Numbered from the stretch's first letter, positions 2,737 to 21,211 are shown. The stretch is 64,000 nt of DNA from an uncultured Acidobacteriota bacterium (GCA_963816985.1 CAWFMF010000004.1:4503106-4567105), one strand, 5' to 3'. Translations and numbers: made by a program. Notes: generated by a model from the sequence alone, not told the origin.

Positions 2737-3198
2737 GTGTTTGAAATGACTCTCAGACTCTGCGGCCAACGCGCCGCGCTGTTCGCCTGTGCGCTCCTCC
2801 TCGCCGGAAGCTCTTCCGCCGCCCCGAACTTCAACCGCGCCGACGCGCCGCAACGCGAAGGGCGGCTCGCGACGCCGGACGATTTGAGATGCCCGCGCGA
2901 CAACACGACCTCGTTCACGGGCCGCGTGCTGGCTTACAGCCGTGGGCGCGGTCGCGTCCTTATCCGCGTGCGGACGGACGAGGAGACGACCGAGCAGTTC
3001 ACCTTGAGCTACGGGCGGCGCGGCGACCCTTCGAGCCTCTTCCGCCTGAGGGGCGAGCGGTTCGGAAGTCTCGACTGGCGGAAGATAGAGACGCGCAACG
3101 GGAGACTGAGGCCGGGGATGCGCGCGACCGTCTGGGCCTGCTATGCGGGAGATAAGCTGACGGCGGAGAGGATTAACTGGATGCCGCCGGAGAGCTGA
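2737..3198 (+). CDS. hypothetical secreted protein
   Basis: 153-aa ORF with an N-terminal signal peptide (LFACALLLAGSSSA). No recognisable domain. Confidence 0.5.
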   Translation: MFEMTLRLCGQRAALFACALLLAGSSSAAPNFNRADAPQREGRLATPDDLRCPRDNTTSFTGRVLAYSRGRGRVLIRVRTDEETTEQFTLSYGRRGDPSSLFRLRGERFGSLDWRKIETRNGRLRPGMRATVWACYAGDKLTAERINWMPPES

Positions 3199-3225: not shown

Positions 3226-3436
3226 TAGCCCCTGCAAGGGGCGAAAGAATTTAGCCGACGGGCGTCAGCCGTGGGAACAAGAATCGGTAAAACGTCGAAG
3301 CCCCTGAAGGGGGCGAAAGACATCAGACGTTGAATGTCTTTCGCCCCTTTCAGGGGCTCACAAATTATGTCGCCACGTCATTCCCCACGGCTTGCGCCCC
3401 TCGTCTAAATTCTTTCGCCCCCTCCGGGGGCTTTTT
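3226..3436. repeat. composite palindromic hairpin-cluster element (copy A1)
   Basis: Nested inverted repeats:
- a small CCCCTGCAAGGGG hairpin at 3229..3241
- a central near-perfect palindrome gcccctgaagggggcgaaagacat...atgtctttcgcccctttcaggggc at 3300..3357
- a terminal gccccctccgggggc hairpin at 3417..3431
- flanking imperfect IR ggcgaaagaatttag.../...ctaaattctttcgcc
Sits at a convergent gene junction. Confidence 0.6.
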
Positions 3437-3447
3437 CAAAAGTTTGC

Positions 3448-3960
3448 TTACTGCTTCCGCGCGCCGCTTCCCTTTTCGACGCGCAGGCCGACGGCCTTCC
3501 ACGCGTCGAAGCCGCCGAGTAAGGCGGCGGTCTCTTTGATTCCTTTGTGCTTGAGGAAGGACGCCACACGGGCGCTCGCGTGTTCGGCGGGTCAAGAGCA
3601 GTAGGCGACGACGAGCTTACCTTTCGGCAACTCGACGGCGTGCGCCGCCCAGTCGTCTTCGGGGACGGAGAACGCGCCCGCGATGTGCTCCGCTTCGTAA
3701 GCCTCGGACGGGCGCACGTCGGCCACGACGGCGCGGCCTTCGTCCAGAGCCTTCTTCAACTCCTCTACCGTCATCCTCGGAATCCGCGCGAAGGGGTCTG
3801 AAGACTTCTCGACGGAAACATCCGGCGCTTCCGTCTTCTTCGACTGCGCGCCCGCGTCGCCGGTCTCGACGCCGCCGCTCTTACGGCAGGTCGCGGCGGA
3901 AAACAGAGAGAGCGTGACGAAGAGCGCGCAGACGTAAGCGGCGTGGCGCATCGGATTCAT
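3448..3960 (-). CDS. rhodanese-domain sulfurtransferase lipoprotein interrupted by an in-frame TGA (3592..3594)
   Basis: The 3592..3960 ORF has a lipobox (LFSAATC) and a rhodanese fold ending VVAYCS-stop. The same frame continues directly as PAEHASARVASFLKHKGIKETAALLGGFDAWKAVGLRVEKG to a TAA at 3448..3450, which is a classic rhodanese C-terminal half. Confidence 0.6.
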
Positions 3961-4038
3961 CCTTCTTTAAAAAATAGGGAGCGCCCGGCGTGGGGCGCTC
4001 CCTTCGTGTTCGACGGGCAAGGGGCGAGACGGCTCGCC

Positions 4039-5115
4039 TTACTTGCCCTGCCGGTAAGTCGCCCACATGCTGTCGGAGCGCGTGGACTGGCCCGCCGTGA
4101 ACTTGTACATGCAGAAGTCGTCGGTGTAGTCCATGAAGTTCTCGATGGGGTCGTTGCCGGGGTACTGACCGCCCTTGCAGGTGTTGCGGCCCGCCGGGCA
4201 GCCGAAGGCGTTGGAACGCTCGGCGGGAGTGTCGCTCACGCCGTCGTTGGTGGCGGTGCAGCCGCCCTGAAACGTGTGGTAGAGGCCGAGCCAGTGGCCG
4301 ACCTCGTGCGTCGCGGTGTCGCCGAGGTTGTAGGGCGTGTAGTTGCTGCCCGGCAGAGAGGCCCAGTAGCAGACCACGCCGTCCATCAAAGGCCGCGCCG
4401 TGTACTCGTTCGGGAAGGTCGCCCAGCCGAGGTAGCCGCCGCCGCTGTTGGTGTAGAAGTTGAGGTCGTCGGCGGTTCCCTGATGAAGCGCGTTCTTCAT
4501 CGCCGTCTCCGCCGCCGTGCCCGGCCCGGCGGAGTACCAAGACGAACTGACCGTGTAGTTGACCCCGGCGAGGACGAAGCGGAACGGGGTGTTCGCGCCG
4601 ATGCCGGGCGTGAGGACGCCACTCTGATTCGGGCCGAGACCGGCGTAGGCGTTGTTCATGACATTGATCTGACTTTGGAGCGACGAGGTCGGGACGAAGC
4701 CCGTGCCGGAACTGCCGGCGACACCGTTCTGCTGGACGACGTGGAAGTAGACGTTGATGCTGATGGAGCCGGGCGCGGCCAGCGCGCTCACGTCGCCGCC
4801 GTCACCGCCCGTGCCGCCGCCGCCGCCGGGAGCCTTGCCGTTGGCCTTCGCCGCTTCTTTATCAATCTTTGCGACCTCGAACTCATCGAGGTGCTTGACG
4901 GCGCAGCGGCGACCGTTCTCGGCGAAGTCCTTCTTCGAAGCGAAGACCACCCCGTCGGGAGCGACGACCGTGCCGTCTTCCTGCTCCGCCGGGCGATGGC
5001 CGGGGTCCTGCTTGTCGCCCTTCGAGGCGAGCGTCTGGACGGTCGGCATCATCGAGAGGACGAGCGCCAGTCCGAGGGTGAAGATCGCTGCTGCGGCGAG
5101 TAACTTACGTTTCAT
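4039..5115 (-). CDS. zinc metallopeptidase, M43 (pappalysin/ulilysin-like) family, secreted
   Basis: 358 aa with a signal peptide. HEVGHWLGLYHTF zinc-binding motif plus DPIENFMDYTDD, characteristic of the M43B family. Confidence 0.85.
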   Translation of the reverse strand: MKRKLLAAAAIFTLGLALVLSMMPTVQTLASKGDKQDPGHRPAEQEDGTVVAPDGVVFASKKDFAENGRRCAVKHLDEFEVAKIDKEAAKANGKAPGGGGGTGGDGGDVSALAAPGSISINVYFHVVQQNGVAGSSGTGFVPTSSLQSQINVMNNAYAGLGPNQSGVLTPGIGANTPFRFVLAGVNYTVSSSWYSAGPGTAAETAMKNALHQGTADDLNFYTNSGGGYLGWATFPNEYTARPLMDGVVCYWASLPGSNYTPYNLGDTATHEVGHWLGLYHTFQGGCTATNDGVSDTPAERSNAFGCPAGRNTCKGGQYPGNDPIENFMDYTDDFCMYKFTAGQSTRSDSMWATYRQGK

Positions 5116-7253: not shown

Positions 7254-8853
7254 ATGAGCCTACAACTACGAAGAAAAGTTCACGAGTCCGTGGTCTACAT
7301 TGACCGCGACAGCGCGCCGCGCATCATCTCTTCGGGCGTGGATTTCGTGCTGGAAGATTTGCCGGTGGGGACGCGCGTCATCTACCCGAACCAGCCGATT
7401 AAGGGCTTGCCGAACCGCGAGGCGGCAATCCGTTACGCCCTCAACCACCCGCACGACTGCGACCCGCTCTTCGCGCAGTTGGAGCCGGGCATGAGGGTGA
7501 CGATTGCGATTGACGACCTGAGTATGCCCCTGCCGCCGATGAAGGCCCCGGACATCCGCCAGACCGCGCTCGAAATCCTCGTTGACATGCTCCACGGGCA
7601 CGGCGTGGACGACATCCATCTCATCATCGCCATCTCGCTCCACCGGCGGATGACCGAAGGCGAGATTAAGCGCATGGTCGGCAAGCGCGTCTTCGACGCC
7701 TTCTACCCCGACCGCCTCTACAACCACGACGCCGAGGAGCCGGACGGGCTCGTCTCGCTCGGCGAGACGCGGCACAAAGAGCCCCTGCGCATCAACCGTC
7801 GCGCCGCCGAGAGCGACCTGCTTAATTTATCTTAACTACAACTTCGTCCCGATGAACGGCGGACACAAGTCGGTCGCCGTGGGCCTGTGCGACTACGAGT
7901 CGCTCCGCCCGCACCACGACCCGCAGACCATCCGCGACTCCGACAGCTACATGGACCCCGGCAACTCGGAGCTGACGCGCAAGATTAACCGCCTCGGCAA
8001 ACTCGTGGACGAGCACCTCAACGTCTTCCACATCGAGACGACCGTCAACAACCGCATGTTCGCGGGCGAGATGAGCTTCCTCACCAAGAACGAGGACAAC
8101 TTCTCGGCCTACGAGCGGATGAAGTACGAGGCCGTGCGCTTCACGATGAGCAAGATGCCGCGCCCCGCGCGCCTCAAGCTCTTCAACTCGCTGCAAGCCG
8201 ACTACGAGATGATTGCCTGCGAGGCGGGCCGCACCGAACCCGTCCACGACCGCATCATCGAGAAGAGCATGCAGCAGTACGTCGTCCCCATCGAGGGCCA
8301 GTGCGACATCCTCATCTGCCCCGTGCCGGAGATTTCGCCCTACAACGTCTACACGAACTTGAACCCCCTGCTCGTCCAGACGATGGCGCTCGGCTACCAC
8401 TTCAACATGTACCGGGGCAAGCCGCTGTTGAAGAAGGGCGGCACTCTCATCGTCCATCACCCCTGTTACGACGAGTTCGACCACGTGCAGCACCCCAGCT
8501 ACATCGAGTTCTTCAACCGCCTCCTGCCGGAGACGCGCGACGCCTTCGAGCTGATGAACAAGTACGAGCGCGAGTTCGCCACCAACCCCAGCTACATCGA
8601 GATGTACCGGCGCGGCAACGCCTACCATGGCGCGCACCCGTTTTACATGTGGTACTGGGGCGAGAACGGTCGCCAGCACGTGGGCCGCGTCATCGCCGCC
8701 GGGGCCGAGAACGCGCACGTCCCCGCACGCATGGGCTGGGAGCGCGCCGACAACCTGACCGAAGCCATCGCCATGGCCCGCAGCTACATGGGCCGCTCCG
8801 CCGAAATCACGATGCTCCACCAGCCGGTCATCGCCATCTGCGATATGAGCTAG
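7254..8853 (+). CDS. LarA-like (DUF2088, lactate racemase N-terminal domain family) protein, split by an apparent frameshift near 7820..7835
   Basis: ORF 7254..7835 reads ...AIRYALNHP...[13 protein letters not shown]...IAISLHR...[15 protein letters not shown]...[11 protein letters not shown], the LarA N-domain pattern. ORF 7852..8853 is in the +1 frame; its upstream extension reads [22 protein letters not shown], matching the LarA DLVI...EPH...GFSGG(R)KS block. The junction lies in the AT-rich tract cttaatttatcttaac. Confidence 0.6.
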
Positions 8854-17343: not shown

Positions 17344-20300
17344 TTAGTCTATCGAGAAATACTTCGACTCTTCGTGGTGGACGACGATGGCCGAAGTTGA
17401 TTGTTCGGGGACGAGCTGAAACTCCTCGCTCAGCTCGACGCCGATGCGCGCCGGGTCGAGCAGCTCGAAGAGTTTTACCTGGTCTTCCAAGTTCGGGCAC
17501 GCCGGGTAGCCGAAGCTGAAGCGCGAGCCCTGATAGCCCTGATGGAAGAGCTTCGCCAACTCCTTCGCGTCTCTCTCGGCTATCCCTAACTCCTCGCGCA
17601 CGCGCCTGTGCCAGAGTTCGGCGAGCGCCTCCGCCGACTCGACGCTCAGGCCGTGGAAGTAGAGGTAGTCGGCGTAGTTGTCCGACTTGAAAAGCTCCTG
17701 CGCGTACTCGCTCGCGCGCTGCCCGACGGTGACGAGGTGGAAGGCGGCCACGTCCACGCGCCCCGAATCCTTCGACGCGAAGAAGTCGGCGAGGCACAGA
17801 CGCTTGCCCGCAGGCTGTCGCGGGAAGGTGAAGCGGACGCGCTCCGTTCGTTCGTCGTCCTGATAGATGATGAGGTCGTTGCCCTCGGACTGGCAGGGGA
17901 AATAGCCGTAGACGACCTTCGGACTGAGTAGTCCTTCGCGCTCCGAACGTTCCTTCAGCTCTTCGTAGACGGGCCGCACCTTCCCGGCGACGAGCGCGCG
18001 GTACTCCTCCGCAGACCGTCGGCCCTGCTTGAACTGCCACTGGCCTTTGAAGAGCGCGGTCTCATTGACGAAGGCGAACACGTCCGCGAGCGGGATGTCT
18101 TCCACGACCTTCGAGCCGTAGAAGGGCGCGCGCGGAATCGGGGCGTTCGGGTTCACGTCCGAGCGCGCGGTGTGCGTCGTGTCGCCCGCAATCGCTTTCG
18201 CGGCGCGCGGGCGCGCGGGCTTGCGGATGCCGAGCTTGGCGTCCTCGCCGACAAGGTCTTCCGCGTCGTCCGCCGACGAAGCATCGGTCTCGGCAGCCGC
18301 GCCGTTTCCGTTGCCAGCGGCGGCGGCCTTCGCGCTCTTCGCCTCTTCCGACTGTCCGCCGCTGCCCGTCAGACTGTCCATCGTGTAGAGGCCGTCGAAG
18401 GCGTCGCGCGCGTAGAAGAGATCGCCCTTGTAAATCTCCTTCAAGTCTTCTTCGACGTAGCGGCGCGTGAGGGCCGCGCCGCCGAGCACGACGGGCACAC
18501 GGATTCCGCGCTCGTTCAGGATTTCGAGGTTGTCGCGCATGACGAGCGTTGACTTGACGAGCAGCCCGCTCATCCCGATGGCGTCGGCCCCGTGCTCCTC
18601 GAAGGCGTTGATGATGCCCTCGATGGTCTGCTTGATGCCGAGGTTGACGACGCGGTAGCCGTTGTTGGTGAGGATGATGTCCACGAGGTTCTTGCCGATG
18701 TCGTGAACGTCGCCCTTCACCGTGGCGAGCACCATCGTCCCCTTCGCCGTCGCCCCGCCCTTCTTCTCCATGAAGGGTTCGAGGAAGCGCACCGCCGCCT
18801 TCATCACCTCCGCCGACTGGAGGACGAAGGGCAACTGCATCTGCCCGCTGCCGAAGAGGTCGCCGACCGTCTTCATGCCGTCCAAAAGGATGGTGTTGAT
18901 GATGTCGAGCGCCGGATAATTTTCGAGCGCGCGATTCAACTGCTCTTCGAGCCCTATCTTCTCGCCGTCAATGATGTGCCGCTTCAGGCGTTCCTCGACG
19001 GGCAGGCTCTCCGTCTCCGCCTTCGTGGCCTTCGTCGTCACGCCCTCGAAGAGCTTCGTGAACTCGCCGAGCGGGTCGTAGGTGCAGACTTCGCCTTCGA
19101 ACTTCCGCCGGTCGTAGATGAGGTCGCGCGCCACTTCCAATTCGCGCTCGCCGATGCGGTTCAAGGGGACGATCTTGCTCGCGTTGACGATGGCGGCGTC
19201 GAGCCCCGCTTCCACTGCGTCGTGGAGGAAGACCGAGTTCAAGACGACGCGCGACGCCGGGTTGAGGCCGAAGGAGATGTTCGAGACGCCGAGGATGGTG
19301 AAGCAGCCCGGCAACTCCTCCTTGATGCGGCGGATGCCTTCGAGCGTTTCGAGCGCGTTGCGGCGGTCTTCCTCGATGCCGGTCGAGATGGGCAGCGCCA
19401 GCGGGTCGAAGAAAATGTCCGTCGCCGGGAAGCCCAGCTCTTGGGTCGCCTGCTCGTAGGCGCGGCGCGCGATTTTGAGCTTGCCGTCGGCGGTGCGCGC
19501 CATCCCTTCTTCGTCAATCGTGCCGACGACGACACTCCCGGCGAAGTCCTGCGCCAGCTCGAAGACCTTCTTGAAGCGCGGCTCGCCATCCTCGTAGTTC
19601 GTCGAGTTGAGGATGCACTTGCCGCCCGCGTGTTGGAGGCCCGCCTCCATCTTCTCCCACTCGGTCGAGTCGAACATCAAGGGGATGCGGATGTCGGTCG
19701 CCAGACGCGAGGCGAGCCGGTGCATGTCGGCTACGCCGTCGCGGCCCACGTAGTCCACGTTCACGTCGAGGACGTGCGCGCCCTCGCGCTCCTGCTCGCG
19801 CGCTAAGGAGACGAGGCCGTCCCAGTCCTCTTCCTTGAGCAAGTCCCTCATCTTCTTCGAGCCGGAGGCGTTGACGCGCTCGCCGACGATGAGGAAAGAG
19901 GCGTCCTGCACGTAGGGCTGCTGCGTGTAGATGGAAGAGGCCGAGGGCACGAGACGCGCGTCGCGGGCCTTGGGCGTGACGCGCTGCATCGTCTCGACGA
20001 CCATCCTCAGATGTTCGGGCGTCGTCCCGCAGCAGCCGCCGACGACGTTGACGCCGAAGTCGCGCGCGAAGTGCTCGATCTGCGCGACGAAGGATTCGGG
20101 CGTCTCGTCGTAGTGCGTCTCGCCGTTCTTGATTTCGGGCAGCCCCGCGTTGGGCAGAACAGAGACGGGCAGCGGCGAGTTCTCGCTGAGGTAACGGATA
20201 CTCTCGGCCATGTGCTTCGGCCCCGTCCCGCAGTTCATCCCGATGATGTCAATCGCGAAGGGTTCGAGCGCCGTCAAGGCCGCGCCGATCTCCGTCCCGT

Positions 20301-20901
20301 TGAGCATCGTCCCGAAGACCTCAATCGTCACCTGCGCGATGACGGGGCGACGGTCTTTCACCTTCTTGAAGTGGTCGAAGACGGCGGCCAGCGCGGCTTT
20401 GGTCTGGAGCAAGTCCTGGCACGTCTCGACGATGAAGAGGTCAACGCCGCCGTCCCAGAGGCCCCGCACCTGCTCGGCGTAAGAAGCCTTGAGGTCGTTG
20501 TAGGTGATGTGTCCGAGCGTCGGCAGCTTCGTCCCCGGCCCCATCGAGCCCGCAACCCAGCGGGGCTGCGCCTTCGTCGAGAAGTCCGACGCGAGGCGCT
20601 TCGCCATCCGCGCGGCGGAGACGTTCAGGTCGTAGGCCATGTGCGCGATGCCGAACTCCGCGAGGACGTGCGGCATCCCGCCGAAGGTGTTCGTCTCGAC
20701 CACGTCGCAGCCGACTTCGAGGAAAGCGGCGTGCACGTTCTCGACCGCGTCCGGGCGCGTGACGAGCAGGTGCTCGCTGCAATTCTCGAACTCCGGCCCG
20801 CCGAAGTCCTCGATGGTCAACTCCTGCGCGTGGAGGCTCGTCCCCATCGCCCCGTCGAAGACCACGACGCGCTCTTTCAATGTCTCAAGAAATTTGCTCA
20901 T
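17344..20901 (-). CDS. metH: methionine synthase, cobalamin-dependent
   Basis: Hcy-binding, pterin-binding, B12-binding (DVHDIGKNLV) and AdoMet-activation domains. The true start MSKFLETLKERVVVFDGAMGT is at ATG 20901; the ORF track extends 15 codons further, to 20946. Confidence 0.95.
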   Translation of the reverse strand: MSKFLETLKERVVVFDGAMGTSLHAQELTIEDFGGPEFENCSEHLLVTRPDAVENVHAAFLEVGCDVVETNTFGGMPHVLAEFGIAHMAYDLNVSAARMAKRLASDFSTKAQPRWVAGSMGPGTKLPTLGHITYNDLKASYAEQVRGLWDGGVDLFIVETCQDLLQTKAALAAVFDHFKKVKDRRPVIAQVTIEVFGTMLNGTEIGAALTALEPFAIDIIGMNCGTGPKHMAESIRYLSENSPLPVSVLPNAGLPEIKNGETHYDETPESFVAQIEHFARDFGVNVVGGCCGTTPEHLRMVVETMQRVTPKARDARLVPSASSIYTQQPYVQDASFLIVGERVNASGSKKMRDLLKEEDWDGLVSLAREQEREGAHVLDVNVDYVGRDGVADMHRLASRLATDIRIPLMFDSTEWEKMEAGLQHAGGKCILNSTNYEDGEPRFKKVFELAQDFAGSVVVGTIDEEGMARTADGKLKIARRAYEQATQELGFPATDIFFDPLALPISTGIEEDRRNALETLEGIRRIKEELPGCFTILGVSNISFGLNPASRVVLNSVFLHDAVEAGLDAAIVNASKIVPLNRIGERELEVARDLIYDRRKFEGEVCTYDPLGEFTKLFEGVTTKATKAETESLPVEERLKRHIIDGEKIGLEEQLNRALENYPALDIINTILLDGMKTVGDLFGSGQMQLPFVLQSAEVMKAAVRFLEPFMEKKGGATAKGTMVLATVKGDVHDIGKNLVDIILTNNGYRVVNLGIKQTIEGIINAFEEHGADAIGMSGLLVKSTLVMRDNLEILNERGIRVPVVLGGAALTRRYVEEDLKEIYKGDLFYARDAFDGLYTMDSLTGSGGQSEEAKSAKAAAAGNGNGAAAETDASSADDAEDLVGEDAKLGIRKPARPRAAKAIAGDTTHTARSDVNPNAPIPRAPFYGSKVVEDIPLADVFAFVNETALFKGQWQFKQGRRSAEEYRALVAGKVRPVYEELKERSEREGLLSPKVVYGYFPCQSEGNDLIIYQDDERTERVRFTFPRQPAGKRLCLADFFASKDSGRVDVAAFHLVTVGQRASEYAQELFKSDNYADYLYFHGLSVESAEALAELWHRRVREELGIAERDAKELAKLFHQGYQGSRFSFGYPACPNLEDQVKLFELLDPARIGVELSEEFQLVPEQSTSAIVVHHEESKYFSID

Positions 20902-21211
20902 GTAATCAAAAGCCGTGTGCTGTTTACGAAAGAAGCCCCGCGCCAAACAACGCGGGGCTTCTTGGTGAAAGCCTTTTCAGACGTGCCCTTTTTCGGGAGG
21001 CCCGCCGAGCTGTTTAGCGGTTATTTTACGTGGCCGCAAGTCGCCTTAACTCACCACGCTTCGACACATATTGAAACATCAGGTCTGAGCCATGTCAAGC
21101 CACACGCCTGCGCGAGATTAAGACTTCTATTGTCCGGTGCCCTGTGCTGTGATAACTTCCCTGCCGGTTCTTCCGTCCTTATCCACATCAAAGCGTTGAA
21201 GAGGTTTCGGT

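Follow-up and report, generated by a model that had tools for sequence, protein, structure and literature searches.

Whether an in-frame TGA in a rhodanese-like gene is read as selenocysteine (Sec), ends the protein or marks a damaged gene is the question raised by positions 3448–3960 of the stretch of acidobacterial DNA analysed here (64 000 nucleotides, referred to below as the window). The minus-strand frame 3960..3448 was translated as MNPMRHAAYVCALFVTLSLFSAATC...KLVVAYCS-TGA-PAEHASARVASFLKHKGIKETAALLGGFDAWKAVGLRVEKGSGARKQ-TAA, which confirmed the VVAYCS-TGA reading of the first-pass annotation and placed the TGA at 3594..3592. The same annotation had recognized rhodanese sequence on both sides of the TGA, and this was borne out by Pfam: the read-through product matched the Rhodanese family PF00581 with E = 6.5e-17 and 62.3 bits (gathering threshold 22.2), the match covering profile positions 1–101 of 102 and running across the TGA. 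The gene was found to comprise the following parts.

3448..3960, minus strand: read-through open reading frame of the predicted rhodanese-like CxU selenoprotein gene, 170 codons from the ATG at 3960.
3594..3592, minus strand: in-frame TGA, the predicted Sec codon, residue 123 in the 170-residue numbering.
3598..3600, minus strand: TGC codon of Cys121, the first residue of C-x-U, invariant in the alignments.
3448..3450, minus strand: true stop TAA, placed from the translation and the ends of homologues.
3493..3771, minus strand: rhodanese homology domain (PF00581), residues 64–156, spanning the TGA.
3960..3965, minus strand: Shine–Dalgarno-like GAAGGA, 8 nt 5' of the ATG at 3951, found by inspection of the sequence.
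3886..3888, minus strand: invariant Cys that ends the signal sequence (...FSAAT-C), a putative lipidation site, compared in 18 homologues.

The orthologues end within a few codons of the window TAA and use TAA, TAG or TGA as their stop. At the other end of the gene the ATG at 3951 is the likelier start, because the majority of homologues begin with MRHA or MRQA; the predicted product would then contain 167 residues and begin with MRHAAY. Gene callers split the rhodanese gene into a fragment of 119–130 residues and a separate open reading frame of 39 residues, and the GTG start called for the latter is the Val codon of a conserved SARVA motif, within the conserved hairpin region described below. 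Genome-wide reassignment of UGA was considered and ruled out, as 15 of the 33 long coding-like open reading frames of the window end in TGA as an ordinary stop. UGA being a normal stop in the genome, any recoding at the rhodanese TGA must therefore be site-specific. A GC3-based scan of the window for other genes interrupted by TGA yielded no second convincing candidate.

DNA sequences of relatives were taken from genome and metagenome collections and through exact-protein look-up, giving a set of 23 distinct sequences that consisted of the window and 22 loci from independent metagenomes or metagenome-assembled genomes (MAGs). The 22 relatives share 38–84% protein identity with the window protein and include a Pyrinomonadaceae MAG in which the gene order is as in the window (L060; GCA_035941045.1) as well as Chloroflexota MAGs (L007 and L008). 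The first-pass annotation had proposed a comparison of orthologues as a check on the TGA; it was carried out on this set and answered in favour of a coding role: all 23 sequences have TGA at the corresponding codon and, in the ungapped alignment, all eight Cys-type homologues have Cys in that column. On the 3' side of the TGA the frame stays open for 27–83 codons in the 22 relatives (27 where the contig end was reached), with no further stop or frameshift, and encodes the conserved sequence U-P-A-E-[H/N]-x-S-A-R-[V/A]-A ... L-L-G-G-x-x-x-W, the C-terminus of a rhodanese. A search of 5.8 billion proteins gave 17 close homologues (59–75% identity), every one of which stops at ...VVxYC[A/S/T], exactly where the window fragment stops, and none of which is annotated as a selenoprotein in that database. 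More distant, full-length homologues read on through the stop column as YCSCPAEE[S/T]S and also as YCNCSHEE. When the window was compared with six orthologues, pN/pS was 0.14–0.42 over the 40 codons 3' of the TGA and 0.21–0.43 over the 68 codons 5' of it, values that point to purifying selection acting alike on both sides.

An alignment of 63 nt around the TGA was prepared from the 23 sequences and analysed with RNAalifold, which returned a consensus of a single helix (columns 32–36 with 42–46). It corresponds to the first of the two elements below; the second is the stem-loop that had been singled out by the first-pass annotation.

3561..3575, minus strand: SECIS-like hairpin core, GCGCC at 3575–3571, loop CGUGU at 3570–3566 and GGCGU at 3565–3561.
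3565..3582, minus strand: CACGCG/CGUGUG hairpin, -8.3 kcal/mol in the window.

In the core hairpin 99.1% of cells are paired, against 20–62% when the partners are slid by 1–3 columns. One core pair changes from C-G to U-A in two related Chloroflexota-type sequences, both substitutions being synonymous (AGC to AGU in a Ser codon, GCG to GCA in an Ala codon), and the closing pair is G-C in some sequences and G-U in others. The covariation thus consists of a single compensatory pair, and 4 of 500 column shuffles scored at least as high as the observed alignment, a figure that serves as a control and not as a probability. The core stem overlaps the conserved amino acids S-A-R-V/A-A, and the third positions of these codons (+6 to +10; Ser, Ala, Arg, Val/Ala, Ala) have an entropy of 0–0.43 bits compared with 1.2–1.7 bits at the invariant fourfold-degenerate Pro, Leu and Val codons immediately 5'. 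Judged from the alignment, the protein cannot account for this constraint on synonymous sites. Homologues with a Cys codon (TGT or TGC) lack the core hairpin and keep just 2–3 of its five pairs. The element at 3575..3561 is accordingly described here as a conserved, predicted bSECIS-like hairpin specific to the TGA forms.

The bSECIS model specifies a loop of 3–9 nt, a stem of at least 4 bp, a distance of 16–37 nt from UGA to loop, a G within the first two loop positions (G then G/U) and a minimum free energy of -7.5 kcal/mol or lower (PMC13188914). The core hairpin agrees with it in loop (5 nt), stem (5 bp), loop G and spacing, its loop beginning 21 nt after the UGA; in the window its core folds at -6.9 kcal/mol, slightly weaker than the threshold of -7.5, and in six other members at -6.9 to -9.1 kcal/mol, with extended stems reaching -22.3 kcal/mol. 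In the clade of the window the core hairpin has a competitor, an alternative fold of greater stability (-11.0 kcal/mol). Folding of the 71-nt region as a single sequence was no better than that of shuffled sequences (z = -0.21), and in Rfam nothing near the rhodanese gene reached the gathering threshold, a permissive scan of 3500–3640 returning matches at chance level only.

The CACGCG-AGCGCC-CGUGUG stem-loop that had been put forward as the SECIS does exist, at 3582..3565, and starts with the tenth nucleotide after the UGA rather than the eleventh. As a conserved signal it was rejected: 60.9% of cells are paired over the 23 sequences, the controls were not beaten and its energies in six other members are +5.4, +5.4, +4.8, +1.8, -1.2 and -3.7 kcal/mol. 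The nine-pair minimum-free-energy helix of the window, which occupies the same stretch in another register, was likewise rejected (76.3% of cells paired, controls not beaten). CACGCG/CGUGUG is a competing local fold limited to the clade of the window and stands outside the conserved signal; the role assigned to it passes to the overlapping hairpin at 3575..3561.

Folding was also examined in 51 nt starting from the second Cys codon of Cys-type homologues with the sequence YCNCSHEED (L001, L026–L028 and L036). Several of these contain a 9-bp long-range stem, UCCCACGAGG...AUGUGGGA, of about -16 kcal/mol directly after the Cys codon.

That Sec-containing rhodaneses are a recognized bacterial family, as the first-pass annotation had noted, agrees with the literature and with the profile searches. 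The record of Sec-rhodaneses goes back to the Sargasso Sea survey (PMC1088965), and the CxU type appears in lists of selenoprotein families, designated `form 3' in one source (PMC13188914) and `COG0607 form 2, CxU' in a 2022 review (PMC9312934). With U replaced by C, the window protein scored 76.8 bits against its best NCBIfam match, NF041203 (rhodanese_LYCAU, rhodanese-related (seleno)protein), and 38 bits against the runner-up. As NF041203 has a curated cutoff of 115 bits, the window protein falls under it, together with its Pyrinomonadaceae-type orthologues (78–92 bits). The Chloroflexota protein L007 scored 122.9 bits, above the cutoff, and the N-terminally partial L055 scored 107.3 bits. 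L007 (VIYCT-U) and the window (VAYCS-U) agree in the column of the TGA and in the hairpin. By these matches the window gene is of a known kind and belongs to a divergent clade that is missed by the curated model and truncated in the database entries found.

A second clade containing the TGA was observed in soil metagenome contigs (L015–L017, L020, L021, L023–L025 and L037–L041). Its members have an N-terminal transmembrane helix, a low-complexity linker rich in Pro and Thr and the motif VVAYC[Q/A/S]-U-PAENESARVA, most of them with a long Pro/Thr-rich C-terminal tail, and score 72–85 bits against NF041203, below the cutoff.

The position of the TGA within the active site was assessed by profile alignment and by modelling. 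With hhalign, Cys121 was paired with Cys65 of GlpE, and alignments to 3tp9 and BH2092 also placed Cys121 at the catalytic position; all three imply a loop that is two residues longer. In ungapped phmmer alignments to 1yt8 and 6mxv it is instead Sec that coincides with the catalytic Cys. For the Cys homologue P0019, DSSP of the AlphaFold model (pLDDT 86) assigned a strand at residues 83–87 (KLILY) and a helix from residue 94, enclosing the loop C88-S-C90-P-A-E93 with Cys88 as the first residue after the strand; the structures nearest to the model were BH2092 (3nhv, TM 0.71), GlpE (1gmx, TM 0.66) and YgaP. Because the model puts the first Cys at the strand end, it favours Cys121 as the canonical catalytic position that opens a six-residue cradle loop, with the Sec equivalent at loop position 3. 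The GlpE alignment and the P0019 model therefore agree with the earlier remark that the Cys is retained and that the UGA lies two residues further on in the catalytic loop.

Three explanations other than Sec were weighed. The first is that the TGA arose by nonsense mutation, by error in sequencing or assembly or by pseudogene decay. A point or indel error or a pseudogene had been called equally plausible in the first-pass annotation because the Cys at the catalytic position is retained, and one base change converts TGC or TGT to TGA; moreover, at least one gene in the assembly of the window has a frameshift, namely the Lar_N homologue at about 7254–8853. The same TGA nevertheless recurs in 22 other independent assemblies at the divergence given above, the downstream frame is kept intact under purifying selection, and only the TGA forms show the synonymous-site constraint and the RNA hairpin. 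The conservation of the TGA together with the selection downstream of it therefore effectively refutes mutation, error or pseudogene, to which we attach a negligible probability; the comparative data essentially exclude the equal standing formerly given to it. If instead the UGA were a true stop, the product would be a truncated lipoprotein of 119–122 residues and the following 47 codons would be untranslated or form the separate 39-residue frame. All automatic annotations in the database do end the protein at the UGA and call that frame, and TGA is a normal stop in the genome, but the fragment would be without the active-site loop and, beyond it, the next helix, the final strand and the GGxxxW motif. 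The codons beyond the UGA are conserved in the upstream frame (pN/pS as above), the GTG of the 39-residue frame is the Val of SARVA in the hairpin region and the Cys homologues are continuous through the column. We regard termination at this codon as very improbable.

Recoding of the UGA to Cys or another standard amino acid, by an opal-suppressing or tRNA-Sec-like tRNA, is a minor rival for which the candidate agents are selC*-type tRNA(Cys) of Deltaproteobacteria and the allo-tRNAs of Acidobacteria. Both tRNA-Sec-like tRNA(Cys) and the unusual acidobacterial allo-tRNAs may act as suppressors, of opal and of nonsense codons, respectively (PMC5389517); related proteins have Cys at the homologous position, and DNA sequence alone cannot separate Sec from Cys at a SECIS-guided UGA. 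Against this, TGA has been retained in MAGs from no fewer than two phylum-level groups, Acidobacteriota and Chloroflexota, even though one base change, to TGC or TGT, would suffice to encode Cys; the persistence of TGA argues that it encodes something that Cys cannot replace. In addition, the curated family NF041203 carries the (seleno)protein label, selC* tRNAs have been described in different phyla (PMC5389517) and the 64-kb window contains no such tRNA. Recoding to an amino acid other than Sec is on this balance judged improbable.

The reading that we prefer, with a probability of roughly 0.88, is that the UGA at 3594..3592 is a genuine Sec codon in a CxU rhodanese-like selenoprotein, because the TGA is conserved, its column holds either Cys or Sec, selection continues downstream, the hairpin is conserved and the protein matches NF041203. 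Sec insertion itself and the presence of sel genes in the genome are what we infer. With ARAGORN, the 64-kb window (roughly 1% of the genome) yielded no tRNA, and 14 related loci yielded no tRNA-Sec; searches of the window and of the related loci by tblastn with E. coli SelA, SelB and SelD found no selA, selB or selD. Sec-decoding species exist among Acidobacteria (PMC1794560).

The N-terminus of the rhodanese-like protein has a positive charge followed by a hydrophobic stretch and a Cys. When the lipobox pattern [LVI][ASTVI][GAS]-C was applied, residue -1 to the invariant N-terminal Cys was T, A, N or S, which is atypical for a lipobox; the protein is probably anchored by lipid, as suggested by this N-terminal sequence. 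Its rhodanese domain is probably extracytoplasmic, because a signal sequence is predicted in the clade of the window and an N-terminal transmembrane helix in the sister clade. The gene is accompanied by the following neighbours.

4039–5115: M43 peptidase.
2737–3198: hypothetical protein.
1827–2594: Exo_endo_phos nuclease.
450–1499: SDR.

This order of neighbours is common to Pyrinomonadaceae-type contigs, and no pathway hint for the rhodanese was obtained from these genes. Directly 3' of the M43 peptidase gene and ahead of the rhodanese gene there is a strong terminator-like hairpin at 3976–4003 (minus strand; 11 pairs including nine G-C, then a T-run), which suggests that the rhodanese gene is transcribed alone. 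The intergenic region 3229–3432, from the open reading frame 2737–3198 to the rhodanese stop, contains four copies of GGGGCGAAAG (3238+, 3310+, 3338- and 3412-) compared with 0.39 expected over the entire window. Each copy adjoins a GCCCC-N4-GGGGC hairpin, the whole forming nested inverted repeats, and the cluster may represent a REP- or MITE-like element or a bidirectional terminator set.

Two further features of the window were recorded. On the plus strand a Lar_N (lactate racemase-like) gene is present as two open reading frames in different frames, 7254–7835 and 7852–8853, and in a 94–96% identical orthologue (L010) as one gene encoding 532 amino acids; the frameshift near 7777–7824 may reflect either a real pseudogene or an assembly indel error. 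On the minus strand a SAM_alpha (SAM-II) riboswitch match at 20993–21067 scored 36.9 bits against an Rfam gathering score of 36 and lies directly 5' of the open reading frame 17344–20946 (minus strand), in which all five Pfam domains of the 1200-residue B12-dependent methionine synthase MetH were found. SAM_alpha is assigned by Rfam to Alphaproteobacteria, whereas the window looks acidobacterial.

With the UGA read as Sec, one gene would give an exported, probably lipid-anchored, single-domain rhodanese-like protein of 167–170 residues. At the UGA, SelB–GTP–Sec-tRNA(Sec) would bind the G+C-rich hairpin at 3575..3561 and so bring Sec to the ribosome in competition with release factor 2. The predicted product would carry the invariant Cys121-Ser-Sec123 (C-x-U) in the rhodanese active-site loop, where the pair would most likely undergo selenenylsulfide cycling or carry a persulfide or perselenide, the chemistry being sulfur transfer or thiol redox outside the cytoplasm. 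A further-reaching proposal, possible but on our estimate doubtful, is that the Pyrinomonadaceae-type proteins form a distinct and unannotated clade of extracytoplasmic selenoproteins, anchored by lipid or in the membrane, with the rhodanese loop turned into a Cys-x-Sec selenenylsulfide redox centre and with a minimal 5-bp SECIS, acting as periplasmic thiol/selenol oxidoreductases or S/Se carriers and not as classical sulfurtransferases. If this were true, the 5-bp hairpin would be an unusually small functional bacterial SECIS.

For annotation the locus illustrates systematic mis-calling, the close homologues being cut at the predicted Sec codon in 17 of 17 cases; a corrected annotation would give a lineage of soil Acidobacteriota akin to Pyrinomonadaceae a selenoprotein and with it evidence of Sec decoding. 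It also provides a case in which a bacterial SECIS may be recognized from frozen synonymous sites where thermodynamics alone is uninformative, and an exported Cys-x-Sec rhodanese would be a tractable system for asking what selenium contributes to rhodanese chemistry.

Compared with the SECIS of the E. coli fdhF type and the bSECISearch consensus, the predicted element is alike in being a hairpin in the coding region just 3' of the UGA, with a small apical loop containing G then U/G and a spacing within 16–37 nt. It differs from them in that the stem in the clade of the window is much shorter (5-bp core), a bulged U is not evident and the energy of the window core is just above the threshold of the bSECIS model.

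Among proteins, the Cys-type sulfurtransferases GlpE (1gmx), PspE, YgaP and BH2092 (3nhv) have the same fold at about 20–27% identity but contain neither Sec nor a second redox residue at +2, and their consensus loop is C-x-x-G-x-[R/S] as opposed to C-S-U-P-A-E in the window. The other Sec-rhodanese forms, predicted by Sec/Cys pairing and bSECIS (PMC1088965, PMC13188914), are listed with UxxS, UxxG or UxxxxU, whereas the predicted Sec of the window follows a retained Cys (CxU). Form 1 (UxxS; Geobacter WP_010941598.1) resembles the window protein in its rhodanese fold and in having Sec in or near the active-site loop, as do forms 2 and 4 (UxxG, `rhodanese-related sulfurtransferase', from the Sargasso Sea and GOS), which share the fold and the placement of Sec. 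TsoB (NF045694), also a Sec-rhodanese form, matches the window protein weakly (18 bits against a cutoff of 805). NF041203 shares with the window protein a single rhodanese domain and the Y-C-x-U motif, with Sec two residues past the strand-terminal Cys; the clade of the window differs from it in having an N-terminal signal or lipobox-like sequence, a variable linker and the loop U-PAEH-A/S-SAR.
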